A stretch of DNA of 62,421 nt, taken from the IMG/VR virus record IMGVR_UViG_3300033508_000392, positions 1-62,421 of that record. The stretch is one strand, 5' to 3'. Positions 10,127 through 26,362 of the stretch are shown here, piece after piece. Source of the DNA: a virus. Taxonomy: Duplodnaviria; Caudoviricetes. Both the position numbers and the translations under genes were made by a program. The notes beneath the pieces are model-generated. The model worked only from the letters and a program-made list of their open reading frames with translations. It was not told the DNA's origin and ran no database searches. How positions within the stretch are numbered: the stretch's first letter is position 1; each line of letters opens with the position of its first letter.

Positions 10127-10129
10127 TTA

Positions 10130-10158: not shown

Positions 10159-10175
10159 ACTGAGAGAGGTGAATA

Positions 10176-10418: not shown

Positions 10419-10462
10419 TATAACATTTTATAATTTTTTTATAAGATAAAAGCATAATTAAA

Positions 10463-10487
10463 GTAGAATCACACGGAGTGGTTTGAA
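10463..10487 (+). promoter_or_regulatory. NAD-gene leader hairpin motif, copy 1 (nadM-Nudix)
   Basis: GTAG-AATCAC-ACGGA-GTGGTT-TGAA. Confidence 0.75.
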
Positions 10488-10512
10488 ATAAAATGAACAA
10501 AGGAGTTCATTA

Positions 10513-11538
10513 ATGAAAGCTGACTATTGCGTCTATATTGGACGTTTCCAGCCGTTTACTAATGCCCACAAGGTAATGGTTGAACGTGCTCTTGAAGAAG
10601 CCGAGAATGTGATTATTCTGCTCGGCTCAGATAAAGCCTCCCTCTCCCTTAGAAATCCCTTCACAACTCAAGAACGCATCTCTACGGTTTACTCTGTCTT
10701 TTCTGAGAAGAGGAACAACATTGTTGTCCTTCCTATTCAGGACAGTGCTTACAACTTCACTGCTTGGATTGCCGAAGTCCAGCGTAAGATTGGTGCCATC
10801 ATACATGAAGGTGCCAGCGTCAAGTTGATTGGTCATTTTAAGGATGATACTTCCTACTACCTCAAGCACTTCCCTCAGTGGGAACTTGTTACTGAGAATT
10901 CGAAGTGTGATGGTCTCTCTGCTACCGAAATTCGTGATGAACTCTTCTCGGGTAAGAAAGTTGGTTATTGGAAGAAGTATGTCCCGGCCGAAGTTGATGC
11001 CTTCATCTGCAATTGGATGACTCAGGATACCTACCGCTTTGACAATCTTGTTGCTGAGTACAAGTACATTGCTTCCTACAAGGAACAGTGGAAGTCAGCA
11101 CCGTATGCTCCCACCTTTGTTACAACCGATGCTGTGGTCTTCTGTCTTGGTCACATCCTCCTCATTGAGCGTGGTCGCAATCCTGGTAAAGGCCAGTTCG
11201 CCCTCCCTGGTGGTTTTCTCGACCAGCACGAGACTATTGAACAGGGTTGTATCCGCGAGCTGAAGGAAGAGACGAAGATTGATGTGGCCCTGCCCATCTT
11301 GAAGTCGTCTATTAAGCAGACTCATGTCTTTGACCAGCCGTGGCGTGACCCTCGTGGAAGGACAATCACCCATGCTCATCTCCTTCAGCTCACCACTAAG
11401 GAATTGCCTACAATCACTGCCGATGATGATGCTGCCAAGGTGATGTGGATTCCTCTTGCTGAACTTGACAAGATGGAGGGTATGTTTTTCAATGACCATC
11501 TCCAGATTATTAAGTTCTTCCTTGGAAGGAGTATGTAA
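10513..11538 (+). CDS. nadM: Bifunctional NMN adenylyltransferase / Nudix ADP-ribose pyrophosphatase (NadM-Nudix)
   Basis: YIGRFQPFTNAH, RNPF, SATEIR; Nudix box GGFLDQHETIEQGCIRELKEET; RDPRGRTITHA. Confidence 0.93.
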   Translation: MKADYCVYIGRFQPFTNAHKVMVERALEEAENVIILLGSDKASLSLRNPFTTQERISTVYSVFSEKRNNIVVLPIQDSAYNFTAWIAEVQRKIGAIIHEGASVKLIGHFKDDTSYYLKHFPQWELVTENSKCDGLSATEIRDELFSGKKVGYWKKYVPAEVDAFICNWMTQDTYRFDNLVAEYKYIASYKEQWKSAPYAPTFVTTDAVVFCLGHILLIERGRNPGKGQFALPGGFLDQHETIEQGCIRELKEETKIDVALPILKSSIKQTHVFDQPWRDPRGRTITHAHLLQLTTKELPTITADDDAAKVMWIPLAELDKMEGMFFNDHLQIIKFFLGRSM

Positions 11539-11792
11539 TGATATCGGAAGTACTTCAGCAAGTTAGGTTTAAACTCCATAAAAAGTGTGTTGATGGTGTC
11601 TTGGTTGTTAATTGTACTGTTGATGAGGCGATCGAAGTTATAAGAAAAGCACTTTTAGAACAAATTGCTATTCGTCCTAATATTATTCGGGAGTTGCGAC
11701 ATGGTGATTTACCTTATGATGGTAGTTTAGGAGATTTCCGTACTCAACAACAGGAAGGGGTGAATTATGTTCGATTCGCTAATTCAGAATAG
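11538..11792 (+). CDS. Hypothetical protein
   Basis: TAATG coupling to nadM. Confidence 0.6.
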   Translation: MISEVLQQVRFKLHKKCVDGVLVVNCTVDEAIEVIRKALLEQIAIRPNIIRELRHGDLPYDGSLGDFRTQQQEGVNYVRFANSE

Positions 11793-12036
11793 AGATAATG
11801 ACGAAGCTAAGTTGGCTTTATTGTATGGAACCCTTGACCCAGAAAAATACATAAATAATTTCATTGATCAAAATGGGGTTGATGTGGAACATATAGAGAA
11901 AGTTCTTGAAGAGTATAAGAACTGCGGTATTGTCAAAGATTATTCAATGGGTATAAAAACAAATAGTAGGGGTATAATAGAGTTGCAGATTGATATTGAA
12001 AGAGAAAAAAGGAGTTTAATTCTTTATGAAGGTTAA
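11767..12036 (+). CDS. Hypothetical protein
   Basis: Tiled ORF; N-terminal EAKLALL motif. Confidence 0.6.
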   Translation: MFDSLIQNRDNDEAKLALLYGTLDPEKYINNFIDQNGVDVEHIEKVLEEYKNCGIVKDYSMGIKTNSRGIIELQIDIEREKRSLILYEG

Positions 12037-12379
12037 TTTGGATAAAATTATCCGCCAGGGTAATCAGAAGGAAATGCAACAGCTCTTTGACGACATATCA
12101 AAGAAGATGTGGGATACCTTTAATGAGGATAATTTCTTCTCCATATCCTCCTTCATCCTTGAGTTGCTGGTCAATTCTTGGAAGAAGGATTTGGTTGCCA
12201 TCAGTCTTAAAAACGATGGTTTCTTTGATGACTTTATTCTTCATATGAAGGAGATCCTTGGGAGGGATATTGAAGAGTTGGGTGAAGAAGTAAGAGAGAA
12301 GGAGAGGGAGAAAGACCCTTTGTATATGGCAGCTAAACAGGCAGATATTGCTGCCGGTATTGCACCAAATAAAAAATGA
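12026..12379 (+). CDS. Hypothetical protein
   Basis: AGGAG SD, tiled ORF. Confidence 0.65.
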   Translation: MKVNLDKIIRQGNQKEMQQLFDDISKKMWDTFNEDNFFSISSFILELLVNSWKKDLVAISLKNDGFFDDFILHMKEILGRDIEELGEEVREKEREKDPLYMAAKQADIAAGIAPNKK

Positions 12380-12380
12380 A

Positions 12381-12406
12381 ATAGATTCTCAATGGAGAGA
12401 ATTGAA
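12381..12406 (+). promoter_or_regulatory. NAD-gene leader hairpin motif, copy 2 (pnuC-nadR)
   Basis: ATAG-ATTCTC-AATGGA-GAGAAT-TGAA. Confidence 0.75.
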
Positions 12407-12423
12407 ATTATAGGAGGTCTAAG

Positions 12424-13209
12424 ATGACTAATGTTCTGAATAGTGTTCACGGAGTGCTTACCGAATTCTGGGTGAATACGGTGGCTTATTTTAAGGGAGC
12501 TGAAAAAGTTAAGCTCACCAATCTTTTTGATGGATGGACTTTGTGGCAGAAGTCGTGGATTATCATTTCCACCCTTGCCATCACTATTGCATCCATCATG
12601 ACTTGGGATCCTACCAATGTCAGTGTTTCTATCATTTCGTTGATTGCCAGTATCTCGGGTATCTGGTGTGTTGTTCTTGTCGCCAAGGGCAAAATCTCCA
12701 ACTTCTTCTGGGGGACTATCAACGTCATCTTCTACGCCATTGCCGCTTACAACTGGCAAGTTTATGGTGACTTTATGCTCAACATCTTCTACTACCTCCC
12801 AATGCAGTTCTGGGGATGGTATATCTGGACTAAGCCTGAATTTAAGGCTGGTGCCGATGTTGTTAAGACTAAGCTTTTGAGTTGGAAGGGTTGGATTGTA
12901 CTTGTTGTTGTGGCAGCTGTAGCAACTGTTGGTTATGGCTTCTATCTCCAGAGTATCAACAACGTCAAACCTTTCATTGACAGTGCTTTGGTTGTTTGTT
13001 CCATCCTTGCTCAATTTCTTATGACTAAACGTTATGCAGAACAGTGGCTTTTGTGGATTGTGGTTGATGTACTTGGTGTCTACATCTGGTCGGTTGTTGT
13101 CTTCCAGAATGGTGGTCTTGCTAATATCGGTCTTCTTATTATGTTTTTTATGTGGACCTGCAATGCAATTTATGGTTACATCAACTGGTTGAAGATGAGT
13201 AAGAATTGA
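12424..13209 (+). CDS. pnuC: Nicotinamide riboside transporter PnuC
   Basis: Multi-pass membrane protein; CVVLVAKGKISNFFWG, MQFWGWYIW, AQFLMTKRYAEQWLLWIVVD, YGYINW. Confidence 0.93.
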   Translation: MTNVLNSVHGVLTEFWVNTVAYFKGAEKVKLTNLFDGWTLWQKSWIIISTLAITIASIMTWDPTNVSVSIISLIASISGIWCVVLVAKGKISNFFWGTINVIFYAIAAYNWQVYGDFMLNIFYYLPMQFWGWYIWTKPEFKAGADVVKTKLLSWKGWIVLVVVAAVATVGYGFYLQSINNVKPFIDSALVVCSILAQFLMTKRYAEQWLLWIVVDVLGVYIWSVVVFQNGGLANIGLLIMFFMWTCNAIYGYINWLKMSKN

Positions 13210-13415
13210 TCGGTAAGTACATTGCAGATACCGGGTTTTATGATGGCCTTGTGGTTGGTAAAGAATACCAATTACAGGATTGTGAGGATGCGACCCGGTA
13301 TCTTGTATTGAAGAACGAACTTGGTGCAACATCCACCTTGCTCAAAGACAAGTTTGTCAATGTGAAAGACGAATTGCTTGTTGCTGCCGAGAAGGCAGCA
13401 GGAGGAGAAATATGA
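13206..13415 (+). CDS. Hypothetical protein
   Basis: Fills the pnuC-nadR gap with overlapping stop/start. Confidence 0.6.
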   Translation: MIGKYIADTGFYDGLVVGKEYQLQDCEDATRYLVLKNELGATSTLLKDKFVNVKDELLVAAEKAAGGEI

Positions 13416-14425
13416 CTGTAGGATTTCTTGGTGGAAAGTTTCTTCCATTTCATCAGGGTCACTTGTATATGATTCTTCGAGCTTCAACCATGGTTGATAA
13501 GCTCTATGTTGTACTCACATCCTCCCCCAATCGGGACAAGGAACTATGTGACCGAGATGGTATCAAGTACATGCCAGCTGAGGTCAGAATGTCTTGGATT
13601 GGTGCATCTGTTGCCGACCTTGAGAATATTGAAGTTATCAACATTGTTGATGACCAGTGGAATTACAATTATGACTGGGAGGAAGGATCAAACAAAATCC
13701 GGAATGCCATCCCTGAGAAGCTGACCCACGTCTTCTCGAGTGAACCAGAGTATGACAAGTACTTTAAAGCTTACTATCCTGGAACGGAACATGTTGTTAT
13801 TGATGAAGGAAGGAATGCTGTTTCCATCTCTGCAACTGAATTGAGAAAGGATTTGTATAAGCATTGGGATATGCTCCCTGTAACTGTTCGTCCCTTCTTT
13901 GTTAAGAAGGTTGTTCTTATCGGGACAGAGAGTTGTGGTAAGTCAACTTTGACTAAGAAGTTGGCTAAGTTTTATAATACCAACTTTGTACACGAGGTTG
14001 GTAAGGATGACTACTGTTACAAGTACAAAAATCTCCTTACTCCGCAGATGTTCGTCTCCACTGCTATGGATCATTTTCGCCTTATCGAGAAACGAATGGA
14101 AGTTGCAAATAAGGTTGTCTTCATCGATACTGAGGCTGTTGTTACCCAGTTTTATCTTGAGATTTATACTGGTCAAAAATCGGCTTTAATCGATGAAGTT
14201 ATCAAATTACAAAATTTTGATCTCATCATCTATATGGAACCTGATGTTAAGTGGGTGGATGACGGAACTCGTTTCCTCGGTACCGATGAACAGAGGAAGG
14301 ATGGTAATGCTAAGTTGAAAAAGATGTTTGCCGACTATGGGCTTGAGTATATCTCTGTTACTGGATCCTATGAAGAGAGATTTGCTAAAGCTCGTGCCCT
14401 GGTTGATGAGATGATTGAGGTATGA
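13412..14425 (+). CDS. nadR: NadR-type NMN adenylyltransferase / ribosylnicotinamide kinase (no HTH domain)
   Basis: GGKFLPFHQGH, VFSSE, ISATELR; P-loop GTESCGKST; WVDDGTR. Confidence 0.93.
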   Translation: MTVGFLGGKFLPFHQGHLYMILRASTMVDKLYVVLTSSPNRDKELCDRDGIKYMPAEVRMSWIGASVADLENIEVINIVDDQWNYNYDWEEGSNKIRNAIPEKLTHVFSSEPEYDKYFKAYYPGTEHVVIDEGRNAVSISATELRKDLYKHWDMLPVTVRPFFVKKVVLIGTESCGKSTLTKKLAKFYNTNFVHEVGKDDYCYKYKNLLTPQMFVSTAMDHFRLIEKRMEVANKVVFIDTEAVVTQFYLEIYTGQKSALIDEVIKLQNFDLIIYMEPDVKWVDDGTRFLGTDEQRKDGNAKLKKMFADYGLEYISVTGSYEERFAKARALVDEMIEV

Positions 14426-14793
14426 TGGGACCAAAATGTTGTCAGTATGCAAAGGATTACATCCTTCTTGCTTATGATAGAGATGATGAAGCTGAAGATA
14501 CTGGTTATAACTTAGAATGTTATAAGCTGAATAAACCATATTGGCTCATCCGTGGTGTAAAGTCAGATGTATATAGCAGTAAATTTGAAGGTGCTCATCA
14601 GAAGATTTCTTTTTGTCCATCTTGCGGTACTAAAATGCCAGGCATCAGATTGAAAGCCATACAACCAAAAAAGGTGAGCATTGTTACTGATGGTGGTTAT
14701 TATTGTGATACGTGTGGTGAAAGATTGATTGCATGCGGATGTAAACAACCGTCTGAGATGTGGGAGGCTGATTATGGAAAAGACAAGAACTAA
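14422..14793 (+). CDS. Cys-rich hypothetical protein (zinc-binding)
   Basis: CC, FCPSCG, CDTCG...CGC. Confidence 0.65.
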   Translation: MMGPKCCQYAKDYILLAYDRDDEAEDTGYNLECYKLNKPYWLIRGVKSDVYSSKFEGAHQKISFCPSCGTKMPGIRLKAIQPKKVSIVTDGGYYCDTCGERLIACGCKQPSEMWEADYGKDKN

Positions 14794-15034
14794 GGGAAAT
14801 GTCATTGCTGAAGATATTGAACTGGGTCAAACCCTTTATGAGTTTGATTATGGGTTTGGTATTGAGACTGTGGTTCTGACTAAACCCATCTTGAATGAAC
14901 ACCGACAATGGGTGTGGAAGGCAGAGAACGTGAGGACTGGAGAGATTATTGACTATCTTGTTACTCCTGGTATGTCTCACTATGGTCCTAATCTTTATGA
15001 CTATATTGCTTATAGTGGAGTTAAATGGTCATGA
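14774..15034 (+). CDS. Hypothetical protein
   Basis: GGAGG SD before ATG 14774. Confidence 0.65.
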   Translation: MEKTRTKGNVIAEDIELGQTLYEFDYGFGIETVVLTKPILNEHRQWVWKAENVRTGEIIDYLVTPGMSHYGPNLYDYIAYSGVKWS

Positions 15035-15182
15035 ACTCAGAAGATGATTGGCTTGATAAATTACAAGAAGAAGAAATGAGTCATAAGTCTCTCTTTGATA
15101 TAATATGTGATTGGTTTCACAATTACGGTAACTATATTTCAATCTTTTTTACGATTTTTGTTTTTATTTATGCTATTTTTAA

Positions 15183-15211
15183 TTTGGTAAAGGAAATATT
15201 TTTAGTATAAT
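15183..15211 (+). promoter_or_regulatory. Promoter TTTGGT-N17-TATAAT, probably leaderless transcript
   Basis: ATG 15218 begins at the 7th base after the -10; no SD. Confidence 0.75.
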
Positions 15212-15217
15212 AGCTAT

Positions 15218-15463
15218 ATGAAGAAATGCGATAATTGCGGTAAGAATTTTGTAGTTAAACATCCTTCCCAAAGATTTTGTTCTCATAAGGGCAAGGGGAA
15301 TTGTAAGGATAGATGGCACAATAAAAATGATGTAGGAAGAGCTCTTGGTGGCTTGATGTATGGTAATAAGAAGTTCTTTGAGTCAAACAACAGAATTGAA
15401 CATGAATTCGATGAATGTGAAGATCCAGGTGACGATATGTATTACATGAATAAGGATTGGTAG
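15218..15463 (+). CDS. Small zinc-finger-like hypothetical protein
   Basis: CDNCG...FCS...CK. Confidence 0.65.
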   Translation: MKKCDNCGKNFVVKHPSQRFCSHKGKGNCKDRWHNKNDVGRALGGLMYGNKKFFESNNRIEHEFDECEDPGDDMYYMNKDW

Positions 15464-15484
15464 ACTTCCAAGAAGGAAGTTGAA
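15460..15484 (+). promoter_or_regulatory. NAD-gene leader hairpin motif, copy 3 (pncA)
   Basis: GTAG-ACTTCC-AAGAA-GGAAGT-TGAA. Confidence 0.72.
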
Positions 15485-15498
15485 TTAAGGAGGATGAT

Positions 15499-16122
15499 AT
15501 GGTTAGGAAAGTTTTAATTGTTGTTGACGTCCAGAAGGACTTTTGTCCTGGTGGGAGCTTGGCTGTTGCTCAAGGAGCAGCAATCATTCCCAATGTCAAT
15601 AAGCTAATCAATAGCGGGAAGTTTCATATGGTTGTTGCTACTCAGGATTGGCATCCCGAGGATCACGTTTCGTTTGCTGACAACCATGGTAAGCAGCCGT
15701 TTGAGATGATTGATGTCTCCTACGGCAAACAGATGCTTTGGCCTCGTCACTGTGTTCAGGGTAGTAAGGGTGCTATGTTCCATGATGACCTTCAGACAAA
15801 GAATGTCAACTACATTATGCGTAAGGGTATGAATAAGGATGTTGACAGCTACTCGGCTTTCATCGAGAATGACAAGAAGACCCCGACTGGTCTCTATGAC
15901 CTCATTGATCTCACCTTGTACGATGTTTATGTTGTTGGTATTGCCACCGATGTTTGTGTCTTCAATACTACTTTAAACGCCAGAGCCAACGGTAACAGTG
16001 GGACTAAGGTCTTTGTTGTTGAAGATGCTTGCGCTGGTGTTACTGAGGATGGAACCAAGGAAGCTATTGCTACGATGAAGGATAAGGGTATTTTGTTTGT
16101 GAATACTGCAGATCTTCTGTAA
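15499..16122 (+). CDS. pncA: Nicotinamidase/pyrazinamidase
   Basis: VDVQKDFCPGGSL, TQDWHP..H.SF, WPRHCVQ, RKG...DSYSAF, GIATDVCV. Confidence 0.95.
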   Translation: MVRKVLIVVDVQKDFCPGGSLAVAQGAAIIPNVNKLINSGKFHMVVATQDWHPEDHVSFADNHGKQPFEMIDVSYGKQMLWPRHCVQGSKGAMFHDDLQTKNVNYIMRKGMNKDVDSYSAFIENDKKTPTGLYDLIDLTLYDVYVVGIATDVCVFNTTLNARANGNSGTKVFVVEDACAGVTEDGTKEAIATMKDKGILFVNTADLL

Positions 16123-16379
16123 AAAGAGGGTATGCGTACTTTGCACAACATGATATATTAAGAAGCAAGGAGAACATAGTGTTCTATATTGCTGTTGTTG
16201 GTTTGGTTGCTATTTGTTTGGGAATTGATGCAGTTGCCTTCTACCTTGGAGTGACTGAGTTCAACGACCTTCTGAGCATCTTTCTTGTTGCGTGGGTTGT
16301 TGTGACCTTTGTTGGTCTCTGTATCAGCAACCGTAGTATCAAGAAAACGTTCAAAAGTTTCTTTTAAGGAGGATGGGAG

Positions 16380-17042
16380 ATGGAACGTTACAAATATCCA
16401 AGAACACGTCATCTCCCATTTTCTCCGGGAGCTACTTCAGACGATAAATTCATTTCTGACTTCAGTGGTTTTAAGGGCAAGAAGGTAGTCATTACCGAGA
16501 AGATGGATGGTGAAAATACAACTTGTTACCCTGATGGTACATGTCATGCTCGTTCTCGTGATAGTGGATATCATGAGTCACGCACCTGGATTAATCGCTT
16601 TGCTACTATCGGTCTTGAAATGAAGAATGTCTCTTCTAAGGTGAATTGGAGATTGTGTGGTGAAAATATGTTTGCTGAACACTCCATCCACTATACCGAC
16701 CTCCTCTCCTACTTCTATATGTTTGGCGTGTGGGAGAATGACTTGTGTTTGGACTGGAATTTTACCAAATATATTGCTGACAAACTGGGAATCATTCTTG
16801 CCCCTGTTCTCTATGAGGGGGAGTTTGATGAGTTGGTGATTAAAGCTTTGCCTAATACTCTGACTGCCAACCAAGAGGGATTTGTTGTTCGTATTGTTGA
16901 CAACATCTACCCCTCAGATTGGGATAAGTGTATTGCCAAGTGGGTTCGTCCCAACCATGTTACGACTGACAAACATTGGATGAGTAAGAAGCTGGTGAAG
17001 AATGGATTGTCACCCGAAGCTAAAAGACATTTGTGGATGTAG
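16380..17042 (+). CDS. RNA ligase family nucleotidyltransferase
   Basis: KYPRTRHLP, TEKMDGENTT (motif I), GEN, EGFVVR, AKWVR. Confidence 0.85.
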   Translation: MERYKYPRTRHLPFSPGATSDDKFISDFSGFKGKKVVITEKMDGENTTCYPDGTCHARSRDSGYHESRTWINRFATIGLEMKNVSSKVNWRLCGENMFAEHSIHYTDLLSYFYMFGVWENDLCLDWNFTKYIADKLGIILAPVLYEGEFDELVIKALPNTLTANQEGFVVRIVDNIYPSDWDKCIAKWVRPNHVTTDKHWMSKKLVKNGLSPEAKRHLWM

Positions 17043-17050
17043 GAGTGGGT

Positions 17051-17260
17051 ATGAATATTGTGATGAGTGGTAAGGTGACTGTAATTACCTCTAAGACAAA
17101 GGTGTTTGTAAATGGAGAAGACATCCCTCTTCCTGAGGGTATGGACACCAGCTCTGTTACCCAAATCAATGGCCGCGTGTTTGTTGGTGGGTATGAATAC
17201 AGAGACAAACGTAAGACTTTTGTCCCTACCATCCGAGCATGGTTTTATAAGCATTTCTAA
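17051..17260 (+). CDS. Hypothetical protein
   Basis: AGGAG SD before ATG 17051. Confidence 0.6.
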   Translation: MNIVMSGKVTVITSKTKVFVNGEDIPLPEGMDTSSVTQINGRVFVGGYEYRDKRKTFVPTIRAWFYKHF

Positions 17261-17270
17261 GGATGAAGTT

Positions 17271-17798
17271 ATGCTAAAAAGGATTAAGCTCCATACTGGT
17301 TGGCAAACTGTAAAATTCCTCACTCCTGTCATCGCAACCAAGGGTCATTGGCTTGGTCAGTATTATGTCTGTACTGATGACTGTGAAATTTGCAAGATTA
17401 GTGAAGAAGCTATGGCAATTGATAGACGAAGTCCATTTGTTAGTGAGACAAGAGCCCGCCACACTTATAGTGCTTTTGCTGAGGTTGATGGAGAGAAGGG
17501 TATTTTCAATACCAATCAGAAGAATTTTGTAGATTGGATTGTTGAGTATGATATGGCTGATGAATACATCATCCTCAATCATGACTTCAGGATTTTTGCT
17601 CGAGAGGAGAAGGCTGCACCTGGTTTCTCATACAACAAGATCATTAACATTGATATTGATGAAGCTGATGAACCAAGAACTAAGATTGAGCAAAGATTGA
17701 TGACCAAGAGAGACATCCCAGAAGAAGTTCTTGTAAAGTTGAGAGAAGATTTCGATGAGTTTATGGTGCAGAGTACTAAGAAGATTTTGACAGAATGA
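17271..17798 (+). CDS. Hypothetical protein
   Basis: AAGGA SD before ATG 17271. Confidence 0.65.
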   Translation: MLKRIKLHTGWQTVKFLTPVIATKGHWLGQYYVCTDDCEICKISEEAMAIDRRSPFVSETRARHTYSAFAEVDGEKGIFNTNQKNFVDWIVEYDMADEYIILNHDFRIFAREEKAAPGFSYNKIINIDIDEADEPRTKIEQRLMTKRDIPEEVLVKLREDFDEFMVQSTKKILTE

Positions 17799-18109
17799 AG
17801 ATTATCACTAAAGAGGGTCAGATGCATATTGAAGGTTGGGCATACAAGGAAAATGAAGAAGAGAAGGCTCAGAAGAATAGAACTGAGGAATTTAATCTTG
17901 TTGTCAATCGTTCCATCAATGACTATGTTGTTGTAGAGCGTAAGAAGCCTGGGTATGCTCATATCACCTATACTGGTCATCTTAAGCCTGGTCATCCTGG
18001 TTTTACGGTTAGAGAGTTGGCTGTCTTCTTAGATGAAGGCAATCTGTGTTTTGGTGGTCGAGGAAGTATTAAGGGTGATAACTTTGAAATCACTGTTTAT
18101 ACAGATTGA
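17795..18109 (+). CDS. Hypothetical protein
   Basis: ATGA coupling. Confidence 0.65.
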   Translation: MKIITKEGQMHIEGWAYKENEEEKAQKNRTEEFNLVVNRSINDYVVVERKKPGYAHITYTGHLKPGHPGFTVRELAVFLDEGNLCFGGRGSIKGDNFEITVYTD

Positions 18110-18111
18110 GG

Positions 18112-18165
18112 TTTGGAGAAAGCATATTTGATTGTATAATGTAGAGACTGACGGACAGTCTCGAA
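18112..18165 (+). promoter_or_regulatory. Promoter TTTGGA-N17-TATAAT followed directly by NAD-gene hairpin motif copy 4 (nadE)
   Basis: -10 at 18135-18140; GTAG-AGACTG-ACGGA-CAGTCT-CGAA at 18141-18165. Confidence 0.8.
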
Positions 18166-18175
18166 TGAGGTAAAA

Positions 18176-18664
18176 ATGAAAATTGCGCTTGCACAACTTG
18201 ACGTCAAAGCGGGACGTCCTAAACTGAATGTAGCTCGGATGCTTGAGATGATTGCTGAGGCAAAATCTCGTGGTGCCGAGCTTATTGCTTTTCCTGAAAT
18301 GGCTGTTGGTGGTTATCTTGTCGGAGATAAGTGGACTGATGATGACTACTGCCGTAATCTTATGGAATGTAATGATGTAATCCGCATGGCAGCTGATGGT
18401 ATTATTGTTGTGTGGGGTAATGTTTATTTAGATAAAACTCGAAAAGCTAAAGACGGTAGATTTGTGCGTTTTAACACAGTTTACCTTGCTGAAAATAAAA
18501 AACTAAACTTTAGGTTTAAATCAGCTCTTCCAAATTATAGAATTTTTGATGATGTAAGGTATTTTGCCAACCCCATGGATTTTGGAATTGTTCCAACTCC
18601 TGTTCGCTTAAACAATGGTTTAAATATTGGCTTAGAAGTCTGCGAAGATATGTGGATTCGATAA
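18176..18664 (+). CDS. nadE: Glutamine-dependent NAD+ synthetase, N-terminal fragment (nitrilase/glutaminase domain up to the catalytic Cys)
   Basis: KIALAQL, FPEM..GGY, KSALPNYRIFDD.RYF, GLEVCEDMW then stop. Confidence 0.9.
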   Translation: MKIALAQLDVKAGRPKLNVARMLEMIAEAKSRGAELIAFPEMAVGGYLVGDKWTDDDYCRNLMECNDVIRMAADGIIVVWGNVYLDKTRKAKDGRFVRFNTVYLAENKKLNFRFKSALPNYRIFDDVRYFANPMDFGIVPTPVRLNNGLNIGLEVCEDMWIR

Positions 18665-18711
18665 GTTTTTAAAATATTGCCAAAGATAAGCTAATGCTTA
18701 TTGGAGGTAAT

Positions 18712-19698
18712 ATGAAAAAATTAAGATATATTTATGAAATAAAAAATTTAATAAATAATAAAAATTATATTGGTAAACGTACTTGTCCTAAAAATTGTAT
18801 ACCGGAAACAGACAGGTACTTTGGTTCAGGTTCTTTTCTTCGTGGTCATTACACAAAAGTGAATGGAATATACGTTTGGATCAAAGGTGGTGGAGTTTTT
18901 GATAAATATGGTAAAAATAATTTTATTAAAAATATTGTTGTGAGTGGAATGTTTACTGTAAAAGAAATTGATGAGTACGAAAAGTATTATATATCATTAA
19001 ATAAACTTTCTGGAAAAGCTGAGTATAATATTACTCTTGGTGGAACTGGTTATAAAGCATCGCAAGCATTTAAAGGTGCAAAATGGTACAATGATGGAAA
19101 AATTGAATTATTATCAAAACAACCAATAGAGGGATTTAATTCTGGAAGAATTGAAAAAACAAAAAAACCAAAAACAAAAGGAAAATATAATTGGTTTACA
19201 AATGGCGTTATTGACTTGATTTCAGATATTTGTCCAGAAAATTTTGTTAGAGGTAAAACAAATAATAGACCACCAAGTCAATTAGGAAAAAAGTGGTTTG
19301 AAAAAGATGGGAAATATGGTATATTTTATGAAGGACAACAACCAGAAGGATGGATAAAATCAAGAAGAAATACTTTTCCATCGCTTAAAGGATTTCATCA
19401 ATATACTAATGGTATAAGTACGAAACTGTGTGAAGAAGGACAACAGCCAGAAGGATGGTATATTGGAAATCCACATATAAAAAATACACATTATTTTAAT
19501 AACGGTATTATTGATAAAATGTGTGTAGATGGAGAACAACCAGACGGATTTGTAAGAGGAAGACTATATAAAACAAATTCTGGAAAAAAATGGTATACTA
19601 ATGGAGTAAAAAATGGTCTTTACAGAGAAGGAGAACAGCCAAATGGATTTAAGCCAGGAACACTATCAAGAGGGCGGAAAAACGAATTTCAACAATAG
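18712..19698 (+). CDS. GIY-YIG homing endonuclease inserted in nadE
   Basis: YIY...YIG, YFGSG, YN...GG; about six W/Y-x-N-G...P-E/D-G repeats; GGAGG SD; AAGATAA at 18683. Confidence 0.85.
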   Translation: MKKLRYIYEIKNLINNKNYIGKRTCPKNCIPETDRYFGSGSFLRGHYTKVNGIYVWIKGGGVFDKYGKNNFIKNIVVSGMFTVKEIDEYEKYYISLNKLSGKAEYNITLGGTGYKASQAFKGAKWYNDGKIELLSKQPIEGFNSGRIEKTKKPKTKGKYNWFTNGVIDLISDICPENFVRGKTNNRPPSQLGKKWFEKDGKYGIFYEGQQPEGWIKSRRNTFPSLKGFHQYTNGISTKLCEEGQQPEGWYIGNPHIKNTHYFNNGIIDKMCVDGEQPDGFVRGRLYKTNSGKKWYTNGVKNGLYREGEQPNGFKPGTLSRGRKNEFQQ

Positions 19699-21058
19699 TA
19701 ATATTTATGGAATTAATCCAACCAAAGAACTCATTGAGGCCGGAGCAGATATAATTATCAACATTTCATCATCCCCTTGGGGTCCAGGAAAAAGTAGAGC
19801 CCGTGACAATCGTGTAAGAGAACTGCACGATGAGTTGGGTGACCGCTTCGTCCCCTTCTACTATGTGAATGCTTGTGGTGTTCAGAACAACGGCAAGAAC
19901 ATCATCCTCTTTGATGGTGATAGCCGTGGTTATACCAAGAATGGTGGAAAAATCTCTCACAAGGGTTTGAAGGCTTACGCTGAAGGTATCATCTACTTTG
20001 ACAAGGCTGATCATGACCCCAAGAACTGGCCCATGTTTATGCCTGACCCTCGTACTGCTGAAGATATTAAGATTGATGAAAAGATGGCTGGTATCCTCCG
20101 TGCCTATAAGGGCATTGATGAAATGATGGGGTATGAGCCGAAGTACGTCTTTGGTCTCTCTGGCGGTATCGACTCTTCTCTTAATGCTACCTTGGCTGTT
20201 CTTGCTCTTGGCAAGGAGAGAGTTATGGGTTTCAACCTCCCCAGTAAGTACAACTCTTCCAAGACGAAGGGTGCTGCTGCTGAACTGGCTGCCAACCTCG
20301 GCATCTCTTATGAAACCATCAGCATTGAAGATATTCTCGCCCCCACTATTAGTATGCTTAAGGGTGTAAGTGGGAACGACCTTCCTTCTCTCGTGGAAGA
20401 GAATGTCCAGGCCAAAATTCGTGGCACCTCCATCCTCTCCAACATTGCTGGTATGGTTGGTGGTGTAATGACCAACAATGGTAATAAACTGGAAATTGCT
20501 CTTGGTTATGCCACCCTCTATGGTGATGTAAATGGCGTCTTTGCTCCTCTTGGTGACCTCACCAAGGTTGAGATTTGGGAGATGGCCAACCGCATCAATA
20601 AGAGGTATGGCAACCTCATTCCTAAGTCGATGATTCCTGATGATGACTTTGAGTTCAACGATGGAATTGCTCCTTCTGCCGAATTGAAGGACAACCAGCT
20701 TGACCCAATGAAATGGGGATATCACGATCGCATGATTGAGATGATGATGGACTTCAAGAAGCATGGTCCTGAAGATTTCATGTGCTGGTACCTTAATGGG
20801 GAATTAAGTGAAAAAATGGGAGTGAGTGACCAGTTGCTGAAGAAGTATGGTTTGGATGATGGAAAGACATTTGTTGATGACCTGGAGTGGTTTGTCAAGC
20901 AGATGCAGAAGTCTGTCTTCAAGCGTGTCCAATCTCCTCCCATTGTCCTCCTCTCGAAGACTGCCTTCGGTTATGACCTGCGTGAAAGTCAGTTTGTTTG
21001 GGAAAGTAGCTTAGAGTATGACCGTCTGCGTGTTAAGATTCTTAATGGAGGTAAGTAG
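19643..21058 (+). CDS. nadE: Glutamine-dependent NAD+ synthetase, C-terminal fragment (rest of glutaminase domain plus synthetase domain)
   Basis: NPTKELIEAGADIIINISSSPW, FDGDS, GLSGGIDS, ENVQAKIRG, GYATLYGD, PSAEL; AAGGAG 9 nt before ATG 19643 (the ORF could also open at 19613). Confidence 0.9.
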   Translation: MDLSQEHYQEGGKTNFNNSNIYGINPTKELIEAGADIIINISSSPWGPGKSRARDNRVRELHDELGDRFVPFYYVNACGVQNNGKNIILFDGDSRGYTKNGGKISHKGLKAYAEGIIYFDKADHDPKNWPMFMPDPRTAEDIKIDEKMAGILRAYKGIDEMMGYEPKYVFGLSGGIDSSLNATLAVLALGKERVMGFNLPSKYNSSKTKGAAAELAANLGISYETISIEDILAPTISMLKGVSGNDLPSLVEENVQAKIRGTSILSNIAGMVGGVMTNNGNKLEIALGYATLYGDVNGVFAPLGDLTKVEIWEMANRINKRYGNLIPKSMIPDDDFEFNDGIAPSAELKDNQLDPMKWGYHDRMIEMMMDFKKHGPEDFMCWYLNGELSEKMGVSDQLLKKYGLDDGKTFVDDLEWFVKQMQKSVFKRVQSPPIVLLSKTAFGYDLRESQFVWESSLEYDRLRVKILNGGK

Positions 21059-21294
21059 TGGAAAGAATTAAGGCTGAGGATATGCGTAAGTTGGCTGACG
21101 ACTCTAAGAATGAGTATGGCGTGATTGCTAAACTTATTCAGGTTGAAGCTGAAATGAAGAAGACTGAGCTGCATATTTATCAATATGTAAAAGAAATTGT
21201 TTTGATTATGCTCGAGGAGGATGGATTCGAAGTTATTCGACAACCAAGTATTGCCATCCAGAAAGACAATCTTTATTATACTGTGAGGTGGTGA
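21058..21294 (+). CDS. Hypothetical protein
   Basis: GGAGG SD, GTG start. Confidence 0.6.
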   Translation: MERIKAEDMRKLADDSKNEYGVIAKLIQVEAEMKKTELHIYQYVKEIVLIMLEEDGFEVIRQPSIAIQKDNLYYTVRW

Positions 21295-21444
21295 TATGAA
21301 AGAAGAAGATTATAAGACAGAACTTGAATATCGTGAACAATTACTTAGAGGCATGCTTAGGTTTGTTGTTCCCTATATGAGTAACAAATCTAAAGAAGCG
21401 GAAGAAATCATCCGCCGCAGTAAAGAACTTGTGGAGAAAAAATA

Positions 21445-21651
21445 ATGCTTAAACCTGATTTGACCAAATCTGCCTTCTCTTCTGGCCTCTTCCCTGCTGA
21501 AATGGCTCGTATCCAGATTGGCCTCTGTGCCATCTGTTCTGAGCCTGTCAGGGAAGAGGATTTCGCAGACTCTCTTTCTAAAAGGGAGTATTCTATTTCT
21601 GGTTTGTGCCAACACTGTCAAGATGAAGTGTTTGCCGAAGGAGAAGATTGA
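21445..21651 (+). CDS. Small zinc-finger protein
   Basis: CAIC...SKREYSISGLCQHCQDEVF. Confidence 0.7.
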   Translation: MLKPDLTKSAFSSGLFPAEMARIQIGLCAICSEPVREEDFADSLSKREYSISGLCQHCQDEVFAEGED

Positions 21652-21652
21652 T

Positions 21653-21970
21653 ATGAAGTATATTTTGATTGTGTTGACAGCTTTGCTATTGGTATCCTGT
21701 ACTCCCTATATCAAGACAGATCAGGTTGGTACTTCAATGCTTCCTGACGGGTATGAGTTGAAGGAGATTTATACTGGTGGGTATCACGTCTTCGTCATTT
21801 TCAAGGATGGACTACCATATCAGGGAACTGGTACTGGTTACTCCAGCGGTAAGACCACTGCCAATGTTTCATCTCTGGTTGTCGAATCAGCTGAAGATGA
21901 AATTGCCGACCTGAATAAGAAAATTGAAATTGCCAAGCTCAAGAAGCAGTTGAAAGATTTGGAGAAGTAG
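21653..21970 (+). CDS. Putative lipoprotein
   Basis: MKYILIVLTALLLVSC signal peptide/lipobox; AAGGAG SD. Confidence 0.7.
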   Translation: MKYILIVLTALLLVSCTPYIKTDQVGTSMLPDGYELKEIYTGGYHVFVIFKDGLPYQGTGTGYSSGKTTANVSSLVVESAEDEIADLNKKIEIAKLKKQLKDLEK

Positions 21971-21972
21971 TA

Positions 21973-22311
21973 ATGTGTACAACTTGTGACGATAGTGGTA
22001 AAATTATTGTTGGTGGTTTTGAAGGAGTTGATACTATTACCTGCCCAGATTGTACTGTAAAACAAGCCAAAAATTTTTTAATTGAAACGATCATCCTTGA
22101 AGGAGAGGTTACTCTTAACAAAGCCGATGGTGGTGCAGCATTGATTAGTGATCAAATTTCAGAAGGTCGGGGAAATAGCGATTCTGGTATTTATGTCCGT
22201 ATTTGTAGTTGGGATGATGATTTTTGCTACGGTAGAACATCTTCTCCCAACCACAAAGACATTGAATCTCTTCGTGGTAAAAGAGTTAGAGTTACTGTGG
22301 AGATTATTTAA
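21973..22311 (+). CDS. Hypothetical protein with N-terminal CxxC...CxxC
   Basis: CTTC...CPDC. Confidence 0.65.
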   Translation: MCTTCDDSGKIIVGGFEGVDTITCPDCTVKQAKNFLIETIILEGEVTLNKADGGAALISDQISEGRGNSDSGIYVRICSWDDDFCYGRTSSPNHKDIESLRGKRVRVTVEII

Positions 22312-22805
22312 TGGGGAGGGAAATAGAACGCAAGTTTTTGATTACCAAGTTGCCTGAGGTTTTTACTACTATGGAGCCCGATATGTATATCAGTCAAGCC
22401 TATGTTGATACTAACATCACCATACGTATACGACTCATCGAATGGTGTCGTCCTCAGAGGTCTGAAGCTGTTATGACTATTAAGAAGGCGGTGGAAGGAT
22501 TTACTCGTCTTGAGTATGAATTCCCTATTCCTCATAAAGAAGCCTATGACATGATTGTGGAATTGTGTGGTGGTAAAGTTATGGAGAAAGAGCGTTTTCG
22601 TTTTATATATCCTCTTGAAGGAGAGAATAGACACATCTGGGAGATTGACATCTTCCACGGTCAGTTTGAAGGTCTCATTCTTGCTGAAATTGAACTTAGT
22701 TCTGAGGATGAAAAGTTTGAGAAGCCCTCCTGGATTGGTGAAGAAGTTACTTCTGACAAGCAATACACCAACGAGAATATGTTTAGGGGGATGAAAGATG
22801 CGTGA
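22311..22805 (+). CDS. CYTH-domain protein (triphosphate tunnel metalloenzyme)
   Basis: EIERKFL, RLEYEFPI, WEIDIF, LAEIEL, PSWIGEEVT. Confidence 0.9.
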   Translation: MGREIERKFLITKLPEVFTTMEPDMYISQAYVDTNITIRIRLIEWCRPQRSEAVMTIKKAVEGFTRLEYEFPIPHKEAYDMIVELCGGKVMEKERFRFIYPLEGENRHIWEIDIFHGQFEGLILAEIELSSEDEKFEKPSWIGEEVTSDKQYTNENMFRGMKDA

Positions 22806-23948
22806 ATTTATTTTGAAAAGGATTGAAGACTTAAAAATTAAGGAACGTGGTTTCCCTAAGGATACTATGCGTTGGAGAAATTCTGAGTTTGATGGAAAAC
22901 ATTTCTCCGTTCTGAAGTTTGAAGATTTGTGTAACGAAGATTTGATACAAGTTTTTGAACTACTTCTTTTTAAATATTACAAGAATATGGGGTGAGCATG
23001 AGTAAAGAAGATGATATTGCGAGAGAAGCAAAGGACATACTTTCTGGTAAGCCACGTAGTGCAGCCTACAGTCAACAGGGTGGTTTCATCCGTTTCTTTA
23101 TTAAGGGAACTGATAGCAAGAAGATGGAGGATTTTGGTACTAACGTCAAAGACTATCTTAGTTCTGGTGTTAAGGGGTATGAAAACATTCGAATTATCAA
23201 CACTGTAGAAGGTGATTCAATTTGTGTTATTGAAGTTCAATCTTCTGACAAGTTTAGTATTCTTAAGGATAGATGGGAAGCTCTTTCAAAATTTGCCGGA
23301 TTTCCTCCTCTGGAGATTCTATGATGAGTGAAGATCAAGAAGCAAAAGACTTTCTTCTTGGGAAGACAAGAATAAAAACTTATACATATGTTGGAAAGTT
23401 TGTCATCTATATGAAGTTTGATTCCAAGAGTAAGAAGCAGGTTAAAAAGTTCATTAATCAATTTATTACTCTGGTGGAGAGGAAGGGAGTGGTGAGGATA
23501 TTGGATAACCCATATGAGAAAAGTAGTATTTTTGTTACTACCTTCACAAACTCATACGATTATATAATTAAAGATATTGCTATAATTTGGAAAGAATATA
23601 CTGACTTTATGAAGGTACCAAATGAGTGATGCTGCTATTGCTAAAAACTTCCTCCTTGGGAAGGATAATCTTTCTGTTGTTCGCAACAAAGAAAGTATCA
23701 AATTCTTCATGCGCTACTTTAAAGAGAATAAGGAAGAGTGTAGAAACTTTCTTAGAGAGATTGAAACCTATGTCTGTGAGCTTGCAGATAAGAAGAAGAG
23801 AACTACAAGATATTGGCACTTTTTTAATAATCCCTACGGAGACAGCGTGATGCTGCTCGAAGTAAGACATGATGCGAATGTAATGACCAGTATTTATGGA
23901 AGATGGGAATATCTTAGAAATTTTGCCGACCTGAAGGAGGAAAAATGA
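22798..23948 (+). other. Run of four small hypothetical ORFs (22798-22995, 22992-23324, about 23321-23629, 23622-23948); the last three share an N-terminal AK(D/N)xLxGK motif
   Basis: EAKDILSGK, EAKDFLLGK, IAKNFLLGK. Confidence 0.65.
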
Positions 23949-24136
23949 AATGTCCCCTTTGCCATAAAGAAAATAACTGTAGTATGATTCATGGTTCAAT
24001 CGATGGGTGCTGGTGCCTAACTGTATCAGTACCCTCCTCTTTATTGAAGTTGGTTAAAACAGAAGATGGATGCATTTGCCGAGAGTGTATTGATAAAGAA
24101 AATATTCGTTTAGAGGGTGTACAAATCTCGGTTTAA
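23945..24136 (+). CDS. Cysteine-rich CWC family protein
   Basis: CPLC...C...CWC...CICRECI. Confidence 0.8.
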   Translation: MKCPLCHKENNCSMIHGSIDGCWCLTVSVPSSLLKLVKTEDGCICRECIDKENIRLEGVQISV

Positions 24137-24152
24137 ATGATAGGATGTAAAT

Positions 24153-24704
24153 ATGAAAACTATCAACCTCTATGTCTGTGATGTCTGCGGTAAAGAAAGC
24201 CGTGTCCTTGATACTCTCACAAAACATGAAACTGCTTGTAAAAGGGCAAAGGCTCTTGAGGAGAAGAGGGAGAGGGAGTACCTCACCCTGAGAGATGAAT
24301 TCTGTGAACGCTTCACTCTTGAGAATGCTGCTGACTGTATCAACTGGTTTGTTGGTGAGATGTTTGACGACCACTTCCCTGAAATCAAAATTAAGGTGAG
24401 GTATGAAGAGTGTGCCTCCAATAGCCATGAAGCTCCCATGGGTGGAGTTACCAACTGGCATCATACCAACGACCTCCCCAGGGGTTATCCTGGTTTTACT
24501 GGCAGTATTGGCGGTATTTACTCTAAAAAGGGAAAGACCATCTCTCAATATTGCGGTTCCTTTGGTAGGAAGTATTCTATGCCCATCTCCACAGGAACTG
24601 GTGGTGGAGACAGCAAAACATGGGGTTATGGTGTAACTTTCTGGGTGGATGACTTTCCGGATCTGCAGGTGAAATGCGCCAAAAGGCTTTTGGAAGAAGT
24701 TTGA
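24153..24704 (+). CDS. Hypothetical protein
   Basis: CDVC...HETAC zinc finger; AGGA SD. Confidence 0.7.
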   Translation: MKTINLYVCDVCGKESRVLDTLTKHETACKRAKALEEKREREYLTLRDEFCERFTLENAADCINWFVGEMFDDHFPEIKIKVRYEECASNSHEAPMGGVTNWHHTNDLPRGYPGFTGSIGGIYSKKGKTISQYCGSFGRKYSMPISTGTGGGDSKTWGYGVTFWVDDFPDLQVKCAKRLLEEV

Positions 24705-24717
24705 TTTATAGTATAAT
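24689..24717 (+). promoter_or_regulatory. Promoter TTTGGA-N17-TATAAT
   Basis: Motif copy with 17-nt spacer. Confidence 0.75.
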
Positions 24718-24738
24718 AGATACATCAAGGAGAGTGGC

Positions 24739-25128
24739 ATGACTATTATTACTGACGAAATGATGAAGAATGGTTATAAGCTTGATTGGCGCAAAGGATC
24801 CGTCTATGTTTACAACCGTTCACGTGACAATCGTCAACAGCAGTGTGTTTGTCCGATTTGCGGCCAGAGTGCTCAAGAACAGGAAGATGGTCTTTGGTAC
24901 GAACATGCATATGAGTGGGACGGTAAAACGAAGATCACCACTGAGGCTTGCCATCTTCCTGAAGAAGATAAGATTCGTCAGGAGTTGGCCATCATCGAAA
25001 AGGCTTCGGATGAAGATATGTCTTTCAAGAAACTAATGAGGAGTAATGATTTCAGCCGGGAAGCTCTTCTTATTGCAGAAAAGAGGGAATACTACGAAAC
25101 TTACCGTTTTTATCAGCCTGTTTGGTAA
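24739..25128 (+). CDS. Hypothetical protein
   Basis: AAGGAG SD; CPIC. Confidence 0.7.
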   Translation: MTIITDEMMKNGYKLDWRKGSVYVYNRSRDNRQQQCVCPICGQSAQEQEDGLWYEHAYEWDGKTKITTEACHLPEEDKIRQELAIIEKASDEDMSFKKLMRSNDFSREALLIAEKREYYETYRFYQPVW

Positions 25129-25174
25129 AAGCATAATTTATTGTATAATGTAGGAGTTGATGGACAACTCTGAA
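25121..25174 (+). promoter_or_regulatory. Promoter TTTGGT-N17-TATAAT followed directly by NAD-gene hairpin motif copy 5 (pncB)
   Basis: -10 at 25144-25149; GTAG-GAGTTG-ATGGA-CAACTC-TGAA at 25150-25174. Confidence 0.8.
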
Positions 25175-25183
25175 GGAGATATT

Positions 25184-26362
25184 ATGAAAATGAACCCTAT
25201 TATCGTTAGTCTGTTGGATCAGGATCTTTATAAATTGACCATGCAGCAGGCTTTTTTCCACCAGCAATCTGCTCGGTGGGGTAAGTATGTTTTCAAGTGC
25301 CGCAATGCTGGCATTACCTGGACTGAGGAAATGGTTGAAGAGATTAACGCTCAGTTTGACCATCTTTGCACCCTCCGTTATACAGAAGAGGAGCTTTCCT
25401 ACCTTGGTAATATTCGGTTTATGAAGCGTGGCTTCATTGAATTCCTCCGTCTCTTCCAGTTTACCCGTAAGCACATCCGCATCTGGAAGAGTGGCGATAT
25501 TCTTCATATTGAATGTGAGGGTCCCGTCTATCTCACTTCTCCCTTCGAAATTTTCACTCTGGCGATTGTGAACGAGGTTTATTTCTACTTCACTGCTGGG
25601 CAAAGTGAAGAATTGTTTGCCAAGGGTATGGAGCGTTTGATTGAAAAGACAGATTTTATCCGTGCCAATCCTTTTCGTTTCACTGACTTTGGTACTCGTC
25701 GTCGTTTCAGCGCTCAGTGGCAGGAGACTGTTGTTCGCTACCTCTCTGAAAATCTTCCTAAGGAAGTTTTTGCTGGTACTTCGAATGTCTATCTTGCCAT
25801 GAAGCTTGGTCTTACCCCTATTGGTACGATGGCGCATGAATGGGTGCAACTCTTTCAAGGTTTGGATGGTGTTACTCTTGCCAATAGTCAGCGAGCTGCA
25901 TTTCAGGCCTGGGTTGATGAATACCGTGGGGATTTGGGTATTTTGCTTTCTGATACTCTTGGTTTTGGAAAATTCCTCAAAGACTTTGACCTCTACTTCG
26001 CAAAACTCTCAGACGGAACAAGGCACGACAGCGGTGACCCCCATGATTGGGCTCGCAAGATGATTGCTCACTATAAAAAGCTTGGTATTGATCCCAAGAC
26101 TAAGCAACTAGTCTTCAGTGATGGTTTGGATGCTTATGCCGCTCATCGTCTCCAGAAGGCTTTTGGGGATCAGGCTCTTCTTTCGTTTGGTATTGGTACC
26201 AATTTGACCAATGACTTTCCTGGTATCATCCCTCTTCAGATTGTTATGAAGATTGTCACTGTTGATGGAAAGCCTGTTGCCAAGATCAGCGACAACCCGG
26301 CCAAGACCATGAGCGATGACGTCGAGTTTGTAAACTACCTCAAGAAGGTATCGAAGGTATGA
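25184..26362 (+). CDS. pncB: Nicotinate phosphoribosyltransferase
   Basis: SLLDQDLYKLTMQQA, DFGTRRRFS, GTSNV, GTMAHEW, RHDSGDP, VFSDGL, FGIGTNLTND, AKISD. Confidence 0.93.
   Translation: MKMNPIIVSLLDQDLYKLTMQQAFFHQQSARWGKYVFKCRNAGITWTEEMVEEINAQFDHLCTLRYTEEELSYLGNIRFMKRGFIEFLRLFQFTRKHIRIWKSGDILHIECEGPVYLTSPFEIFTLAIVNEVYFYFTAGQSEELFAKGMERLIEKTDFIRANPFRFTDFGTRRRFSAQWQETVVRYLSENLPKEVFAGTSNVYLAMKLGLTPIGTMAHEWVQLFQGLDGVTLANSQRAAFQAWVDEYRGDLGILLSDTLGFGKFLKDFDLYFAKLSDGTRHDSGDPHDWARKMIAHYKKLGIDPKTKQLVFSDGLDAYAAHRLQKAFGDQALLSFGIGTNLTNDFPGIIPLQIVMKIVTVDGKPVAKISDNPAKTMSDDVEFVNYLKKVSKV

Follow-up and report, generated by a model that had tools for sequence, protein, structure and literature searches.

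A small covarying RNA hairpin precedes NAD salvage genes in a large phage and in some Spirochaetia

A hairpin motif in front of five NAD salvage units

The window analysed here was the IMG/VR virus record IMGVR_UViG_3300033508_000392 at its full length (62,421 bp), which is the entire assembly and was scanned on both strands. It represents part of a large phage genome that has T4-like rIIA and rIIB genes, its completeness being estimated at 29% by CheckV, and a near-identity DNA search with positions 10000-26500 gave no match in the phage collection. The window encodes NAD salvage enzymes in five scattered units, namely nadM-Nudix, pnuC together with a NadR-like gene (one unit, 12424-14425), a pncA-type nicotinamidase gene, a split nadE and pncB. 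A hairpin of 25-26 nt, hereafter the motif, was found in the leader of each unit (Table 1), and the positions and letters of the five hairpins, as proposed in an earlier reading of this DNA without database searches (the sequence-only reading), were all confirmed when the sequence was read again. The NadR-like gene, in whose product a helix-turn-helix domain was not seen by Pfam, had no copy of its own, and the same was true of the NAD-linked NADAR gene at 33184-33651. The combination of PnuC with a NadR-like RNK/NMNAT protein is the gene pair named NARP3 in coliphages (PMC13464706, consulted in part).

Structure and invariant positions

Together with six relatives described below (two from uncultured phage contigs, L015/L038 and L037, and four from the bacterial genomes G003, G004, G735 and G755), the five window copies formed a set of 11, which was aligned including 2-4 nt of the sequence to either side. 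All 77 stem cells of the alignment were paired, while slid registers gave a pairing of only 22-47%. Changes on both sides were found in six of the seven pairs, and the seventh was either G-U (7 copies) or G-C (4 copies). Moreover, the covariation score was 1.283 compared with 0.317 in shuffles, none of the 500 shuffles reaching the observed value, and the 7-bp hairpin was the minimum free energy (MFE) fold in eight of the nine leaders folded. From the G-U pairs, and from a closing pair that is G-U or G-C, the structure can be assigned to RNA of the + strand. Thus, the proposal of a structure-based RNA element whose stems vary but keep pairing was upheld by the complete pairing, the compensatory changes and the occurrence of G-U on the + strand only.

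The motif consists of RUAG, six variable base pairs, a purine-rich loop and YGAA, so that the 7-bp helix is made of an invariant G paired to Y plus six freely covarying pairs. Seven letters were the same in the 11 copies (5′ UAG, the A that ends the loop, and 3′ GAA), as was the stem length; the flanks RTAG and YGAA, which had been called conserved from the window alone, therefore hold with UAG and GAA invariant. Among these letters, UA(G) and GAA are the unpaired invariants at the base of the helix. The first letter was G in eight copies (GTAG) and A in three (ATAG). The loop had 5 nt in 10 of the copies and 6 nt in one, and it followed the purine-rich pattern RNRRA with varying letters (ACGGA, AUGGA, AAUGGA, AAGAA, AAAGA and GGAGA). 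The triplet GGA was present in eight loops and missing from those of pncA and L037 (AAGAA) and of L015 (AAAGA), so the ANGGA loop taken as conserved in the sequence-only reading did not survive the addition of relatives. A factor reading base and loop at once would be expected to impose just such an invariant stem length and near-constant loop. Neither an outer helix nor a loop pseudoknot nor an alternative pairing against the Shine-Dalgarno (SD) sequence was consistent across copies when the nine folded leaders were checked by eye. Furthermore, bulged-G modules (loop E or sarcin-ricin type) have the consensus AGUA opposite GAA beside a Watson-Crick helix, with a second helix closing the module. 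The base of the motif, with RUA opposite GAA beside the G-Y pair in all 11 copies (G first in eight) and no conserved outer helix, resembles this module in its letters.

Specificity within the window

A strict pattern, defined as NTAG, a perfect stem of 5-7 bp (G-U allowed), a loop of 3-8 nt and NGAA, was found at five sites of the window, these being the five copies, with zero others. In the form with a 6-bp stem and a loop of 5-6 nt, the window has five occurrences, whereas 300 first-order Markov shuffles averaged 0.33 and did not exceed 2. Two covariance models were also run on the window: R1, constructed from the five window copies and one orthologue and used with all filters off, and the final model R3. 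With R1, the five copies scored 36-40 bits and the next matches 19.9 and 18.1 bits; with R3, the values were 31-37 bits for the copies and 21.8 and 18.9 bits for the next matches. The runner-up matches at 30545 and 48292 lay within coding open reading frames (ORFs) and had no stem, and that at 20786 lay within a coding ORF according to the ORF table. The probability that all five copies precede NAD units by chance was about 2e-7 in a simple hypergeometric calculation, with 107 ORFs by a rough greedy call and 7 NAD-gene starts. Within this phage record, the motif is restricted to NAD salvage genes, as the sequence-only reading had noticed: the covariance models and the strict scan gave no copy elsewhere.

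Position relative to the Shine-Dalgarno sequence and to promoter-like boxes

The last A of GAA was followed by the ATG after 25 nt in nadM, 17 nt in pnuC, 14 nt in pncA, 10 nt in nadE and 9 nt in pncB, and the motif ended 9-26 nt before the start codon across the 11 copies. The SD lay 0-8 nt after GAA in eight of them, and in five of the eight (the four bacterial copies and phage pncB) it came immediately after. GAA touched or overlapped the SD in pncB, in nadE and in the four bacterial copies, and in pncB it ran into GGAG. The remaining three copies were nadM leaders of the phage clade, where a second hairpin holding the SD adjoined the motif. This second hairpin, which in the window stops 2 nt short of the nadM ATG and has the form GAAC..GGA..GTTC, was also found in L015, L037 and the bacterial locus L043, while no such structure was seen at the other four window copies. 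The description of every copy as lying just 5′ of the SD is therefore inaccurate for nadM, where the second hairpin intervenes. Two of the phage copies were intercistronic, as the pnuC copy starts 2 nt past the stop of the ORF 12026-12379, and the TAG of the pncA copy is the stop codon of the ORF 15218-15463; a 5′-terminal position is therefore not required.

A box AAAGCATAaTT recurred 25-45 nt before start codons at no fewer than eight sites of the + strand, and it resembles a promoter word belonging to the phage itself. It appeared as the promoter-like AAAGCATAATT at 10449, 5′ of the nadM copy, and as AAAGCATA at 18119 in the nadE leader, and it was kept before nadM in L015 and slightly altered in L037. 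Moreover, nadE and pncB shared a cassette TTGGnn-16-TATAAT (18112-18140 and 25122-25149), promoter-like as TTGGTA-16-TATAAT in pncB, which ended 1 nt before the motif, so that its sigma70-like TATAAT adjoins the motif. In these two leaders, the AAAGCATAaTT box was 14 nt further upstream than the TATAAT cassette, and a transcript from the box would include the motif. As the promoter scan was at background (49 found vs. 46 expected), transcription starts are not claimed.

Copies in related phages and in Spirochaetia

The motif was kept, with differing stems, in the orthologous nadM leaders of two uncultured phage contigs: L015/L038, whose NadM was 72% identical to that of the window (ATAG-AGATTC-AAAGA-GAGTCT-TGAA), and L037, whose NadM was 77% identical (ATAG-AATTAC-AAGAA-GTGATT-CGAA). 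The proteins of this NadM clade (P0002-P0016) were 62-87% identical, and alignment-based scans found one member in IMG/VR, one in metagenome contigs and none in genome contigs. The motif was absent from 27 distant viral NAD loci (relatives of PncB, PnuC, PncA and NadE with 32-49% identity), from phages RB16, Moby, MD18 and LucasX and from the viral loci L039-L042.

Further copies were reached by a protein-first scan of GTDB genomes, all of them in Spirochaetia. In G003 and G004, which belong to one family, GTAG-GCYGAT-ACGGA-ATYRGC-CGAA was found 10-11 nt before the ATG of nadM, which heads an operon nadM-pncA-like-nadE-pncB, the setting in G003 being ordinary chromosomal. In G735 and G755, from a second family of the same class, GTAG-TYCGCC-GGAGA-GGCGGA-TGAA preceded nadM, which in G735 is solitary, flanked by AsnA and peptidase M90 genes of opposite orientation and of an ordinary chromosomal kind, and in G755 lies on a 2.6-kb contig. 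Among the best 48-150 candidates scored per genome, the motif was the sole match in each of these four genomes of 3.4-4.3 Mb. In wider samples, scored to the same depth, no further copies came up: the matches were in 2 out of 151 (order), 2 out of 40 and 2 out of 8 (the two families) and 1 out of 151 (class), always in nadM leaders; NadM-Nudix is itself rare in the phylum (1 out of 401, 4 out of 42, 3 out of 401 and 2 out of 8 genomes of the samples searched). The upstream DNA of eight bacterial nadM genes included four cases with the motif, three without it (G005, G006 and G054) and one look-alike, in the uncultured Spirochaetia bacterium G002 (L043, 5255-5307). The latter has TAAG, a stem of 6 bp, the loop GGGGA and, after three additional letters, TGAA, and it is followed by an SD hairpin of the phage nadM type before a nadM-nadE pair; it was not counted as a copy, as no model scored it.

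The motif is therefore not phage-specific, being carried by a phage lineage and by a few spirochaetes, and the phage NAD regulon put forward in the sequence-only reading was too narrow a description, given that four Spirochaetia genomes each carry one copy before nadM. With regard to the enzymes, the phage PncB was 60.7% identical to the PncB of a motif-bearing spirochaete operon (L044, 6718-7881) vs. 50% for the best record of the phage collection, and the identity between phage and spirochaete proteins was 45-54% for NadE and 46-49% for NadM. The phage host may be a spirochaete, as its NAD enzymes are closest to Spirochaetia homologues despite the T4-like rIIA and rIIB; spirochaetes are not known to have T4-like phages.

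Table 1. Positions of the motif copies, the genes behind them and the associated features in the window.
Feature	Position	Strand	Details
Copy 1, nadM leader	10463-10487	+	GTAG-AATCAC-ACGGA-GTGGTT-TGAA; 37-40 bits
Second hairpin of the nadM leader, containing the SD	10493-10510	+	ATGAAC-AAAGGA-GTTCAT; in the MFE fold
nadM-Nudix (NMN adenylyltransferase + ADP-ribose pyrophosphatase type)	10513-11538	+	Pfam CTP_transf_like + NUDIX
Copy 2, pnuC leader	12381-12406	+	ATAG-ATTCTC-AATGGA-GAGAAT-TGAA
pnuC	12424-13209	+	Pfam NMN_transporter
NadR-like RNK/NMNAT gene	13412-14425	+	Pfam AAA_28 + CTP_transf_like
Copy 3, pncA leader	15460-15484	+	GTAG-ACTTCC-AAGAA-GGAAGT-TGAA
pncA-type nicotinamidase (isochorismatase fold)	15499-16122	+	Pfam Isochorismatase
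Copy 4, nadE leader	18141-18165	+	GTAG-AGACTG-ACGGA-CAGTCT-CGAA
Split nadE, glutaminase part	18176-18664	+	Pfam CN_hydrolase
ORF between the nadE halves, 334 aa	18694-19698	+	no Pfam hit at E<=0.001
Split nadE, synthetase part	19613-21058	+	Pfam NAD_synthase; tblastn with spirochaete NadE
Copy 5, pncB leader	25150-25174	+	GTAG-GAGTTG-ATGGA-CAACTC-TGAA
pncB nicotinate phosphoribosyltransferase	25184-26362	+	Pfam NAPRTase_N + NAPRTase
AAAGCATAaTT box sites	2506, 10449, 18119, 25128, 37719, 39370, 47869, 53116	+	

Comparison with known NAD leader RNAs

No match to Rfam 15 was found in the window at gathering scores, and at E<=10 there was nothing, NAD+-I and NAD+-II included, either at the motif sites (10000-26000) or in five related loci, which agrees with the earlier statement that the motif is not a described NAD riboswitch. 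Moreover, no description of it was found in the literature searched, the supplements of large RNA-motif surveys lying outside that search, and the words hairpin and riboswitch were absent from the NARP3 paper (PMC13464706). The motif is thus an uncatalogued element, and it is a real, NAD-specific and covarying RNA.

Among the known leader RNAs, the NAD+-II riboswitch (pnuC motif) of Streptococcus is described as having P1, P1a and a pseudoknot involving the ribosome binding site, with many conserved letters in about 55-65 nt (PMC7749635, in part). It resembles the motif in being a small leader RNA of an NAD salvage gene (pnuC) that extends as far as the ribosome binding site, and it should be off when NAD is abundant. 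Unlike NAD+-II, the motif has one 7-bp hairpin with 7 invariant letters, and neither a conserved second helix nor a complement to its loop was seen in the nine folded leaders or in the 11-copy alignment. The NAD+-I riboswitch (nadA motif) of Acidobacteria is likewise reported as a leader RNA, confined to positions upstream of an NAD biosynthesis gene (PMC6859854, in part). In that case, two tandem domains with bulged stems precede nadA, whereas the motif is a single hairpin found with no nadA and in other taxa and another gene set.

A different hairpin, with the loop GAUAGAC, was seen in the leaders of Phaeobacter phage MD18 and Xanthomonas phage LucasX. As with the motif, it is located before nadM-Nudix and combines free stems with a fixed, short, purine-rich single-stranded word; the SD-holding second hairpin is also shared, on the side of the motif only by the phage-clade nadM leaders (window nadM, L015 and L037) and by L043. 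Furthermore, the AUAGA of this leader fits both the loop pattern RNRRA and the 5′ flank RUAGA. In contrast, its loop is invariant, while the motif has a variable loop and invariant flanks (UAG and GAA). GATAGAC was found only once on the + strand of the window (17421), inside a coding sequence and with no stem, and R1 gave no match on the GAUAGAC leaders. The motif is therefore best treated as a class separate from the GAUAGAC leader, with which it may or may not share a reader. As for the second hairpin, nadM and nadV of unrelated phages were observed to share an SD hairpin GAA..GGAG..UUC in Stenotrophomonas phage Moby (L034, 2440-2482 and 3520-3562) and in MD18 (L035, 2450-2500 and 3840-3894), the GAUAGAC-loop hairpin lying 5′ of it in MD18.

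A putative translational operator and its alternatives

The motif is probably a switch for the output of NAD enzymes that has not been catalogued before. A translational operator with a dedicated factor would fit its fixed helix length, conserved ends and free stem, its closeness to the SD and its confinement to one pathway, and we give about an even chance to the motif being such a cis-acting RNA operator beside the SD of NAD salvage genes, with a protein as the likelier reader. A dedicated reader would grip the base platform and the loop of the hairpin, thereby accounting for a stem of constant length, and its binding would block or free the access of the 30S subunit to the neighbouring SD, so that the translation of all NAD salvage units would be set together by NAD status. 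The most economical candidate is NadM-Nudix, acting as an autogenous, ligand-modulated repressor, since nadM-Nudix stands directly behind a copy in every motif-bearing genome. From the letters and their arrangement we infer the identity of the reader, the sign of the control and the action on translation. The mechanism thought most likely has its closest parallel in the DNA polymerase gp43 of T4 and RB69, reported to repress its own mRNA through a hairpin operator that has critical loop letters and extends over the ribosome binding site (PMC3014915, in part). That operator serves one gene, whereas the motif precedes five units and also occurs in bacteria.

Several observations weigh against this operator. 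When seven motif-linked NadM proteins were aligned with six motif-less ones and one linked to the divergent form, no group-specific basic patch or insertion was found, only one column (E322) separating the groups, and G006 and G054 have a NadM and come from a motif-bearing family yet lack the motif. In addition, if the TATAAT of nadE and pncB were used, transcripts from the predicted start about 7 nt past it would lack the 5′ half of the motif. On the technical side, R1 and R3 were trained on the copies that score best under them, and the genome searches were limited to the top-ranked candidates of each genome; the evidence that is independent of the covariance models comes from the pattern scan and from the protein-first discovery of the bacterial copies.

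Instead of a protein, a metabolite could be the reader, with the UAG/GAA platform and the loop of a minimal riboswitch forming a pocket for NAD+ or for one of its fragments or precursors (NMN, NaMN, ADP-ribose or nicotinamide riboside) and locking GAA and the SD. This seems possible though rather unlikely. The motif is found with NAD salvage genes only, and the contexts are unrelated: five units in the phage, and an operon (G003 and G004) and a solitary nadM (G735) in bacteria. Each bacterial genome gives a single match, the invariant unpaired purines adjoin the SD, no dedicated protein reader was found, and the NAD+ riboswitches already described likewise lie before nadA or pnuC, with the ribosome binding site as a part of them (PMC7749635, in part). 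However, an RNA of only about 25 nt with a single helix has, as far as the flanks were judged by eye, no conserved pseudoknot, junction or outer helix, its loop letters vary (ACGGA, AUGGA, AAUGGA, AAGAA, AAAGA and GGAGA), no consistent alternative pairing offers an expression platform, and protein operators more typically have a stem of fixed length. A more specific version, which we likewise consider unlikely, is that the motif would be a third class of NAD-responsive riboswitches and the smallest one, common to Spirochaetia and a giant-phage lineage, in which the UAG/GAA platform of a 25-nt hairpin would bind NAD+ or a breakdown product, so that the five scattered genes of the phage would be translated only after the host defence drains NAD+. 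If so, the controlled arsenal would be the deamidating Preiss-Handler route, NadM and the NARP3-type PnuC-NadR pair.

A passive mRNA element with no sensing of NAD (a hairpin that stabilises the 5′ end, a site of RNase processing or an insulator keeping the SD free) would account for the stable folds, for the -10-like hexamer 6-7 nt upstream of the motif in G003, G004 and G755, where transcription may begin at the G of GUAG, and for the AAAGCATAAT box just upstream in the phage-clade nadM leaders. It is improbable, as a generic element is expected before many genes and the motif stands before NAD genes only, two copies are intercistronic, and invariant flanks with free stems indicate sequence-specific reading. 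Even less probable is a CsrA/RsmA site, favoured in the sequence-only reading along with other readers, at which CsrA would repress translation by bridging the loop GGA and the SD GGA. This would suit the eight loops with GGA, the second GGA or GAG in the SD 10-30 nt downstream and the presence of csrA (PF02599) in all four motif-bearing bacterial genomes. The idea was weakened by the three loops without GGA (pncA, L037 and L015), while UAG and GAA, which are not known to belong to CsrA recognition, are invariant in all copies. Besides, a global regulator leaves a motif that occurs once per genome and only with NAD genes unexplained, and no csrA gene was found in the window, the record being about 29% complete.

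A DNA-level origin, either as a GTAG-tagged mobile palindrome of the REP type or as an operator or promoter element, is extremely unlikely. GTAG, the tag of the REP superfamily (PMC3733652, in part), starts 8 of the 11 copies and is followed by a palindrome, the pncA copy supplies the upstream ORF with its stop TAG, and TATAAT is touched by the motif at nadE and pncB. Nevertheless, REPs are described there as near-identical palindromes of 20-40 bp in high copy number, located for the most part 3′ of genes and frequently paired in inverted orientation, while the motif has wholly different stems, a low copy number (one per bacterial genome), an upstream position, a single orientation towards the downstream gene and a conserved 3′ GAA. 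A RAYT/Y1 transposase (PF01797) had no match in the window, which is a fragment. Regarding a DNA operator, the G-U pairs are sensible only in + strand RNA, and the flanks are not palindromic as a dimeric operator would need.

Phage reconstitution of NAD+ is reported to be a counter-defence against NAD-depleting immunity (bioRxiv 10.1101/2024.02.11.579819; PMC13464706, both in part), and the literature searched gave no account of how these costly phage genes are controlled. In this context, one very small RNA word would tie five dispersed phage genes into one regulon and would also guard homologous bacterial genes, connecting a T4-like phage lineage with spirochaete hosts or at least with their gene pool. 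If read by a protein, it would define a new enzyme-linked translational regulon; if read by a metabolite, a new riboswitch class of minimal size.

Other genes of the window

The NAD genes are interspersed with genes at which the motif was absent, encoding an RNA ligase (16380-17042), a CYTH protein (22311-22805) and a NifU-like protein (30928-31344). Finally, the window also carries a ClpA-like ATP-dependent protease gene at 4786-6828 and two paralogous HNH/homing-endonuclease genes at 1653-2546 and 44612-45499.

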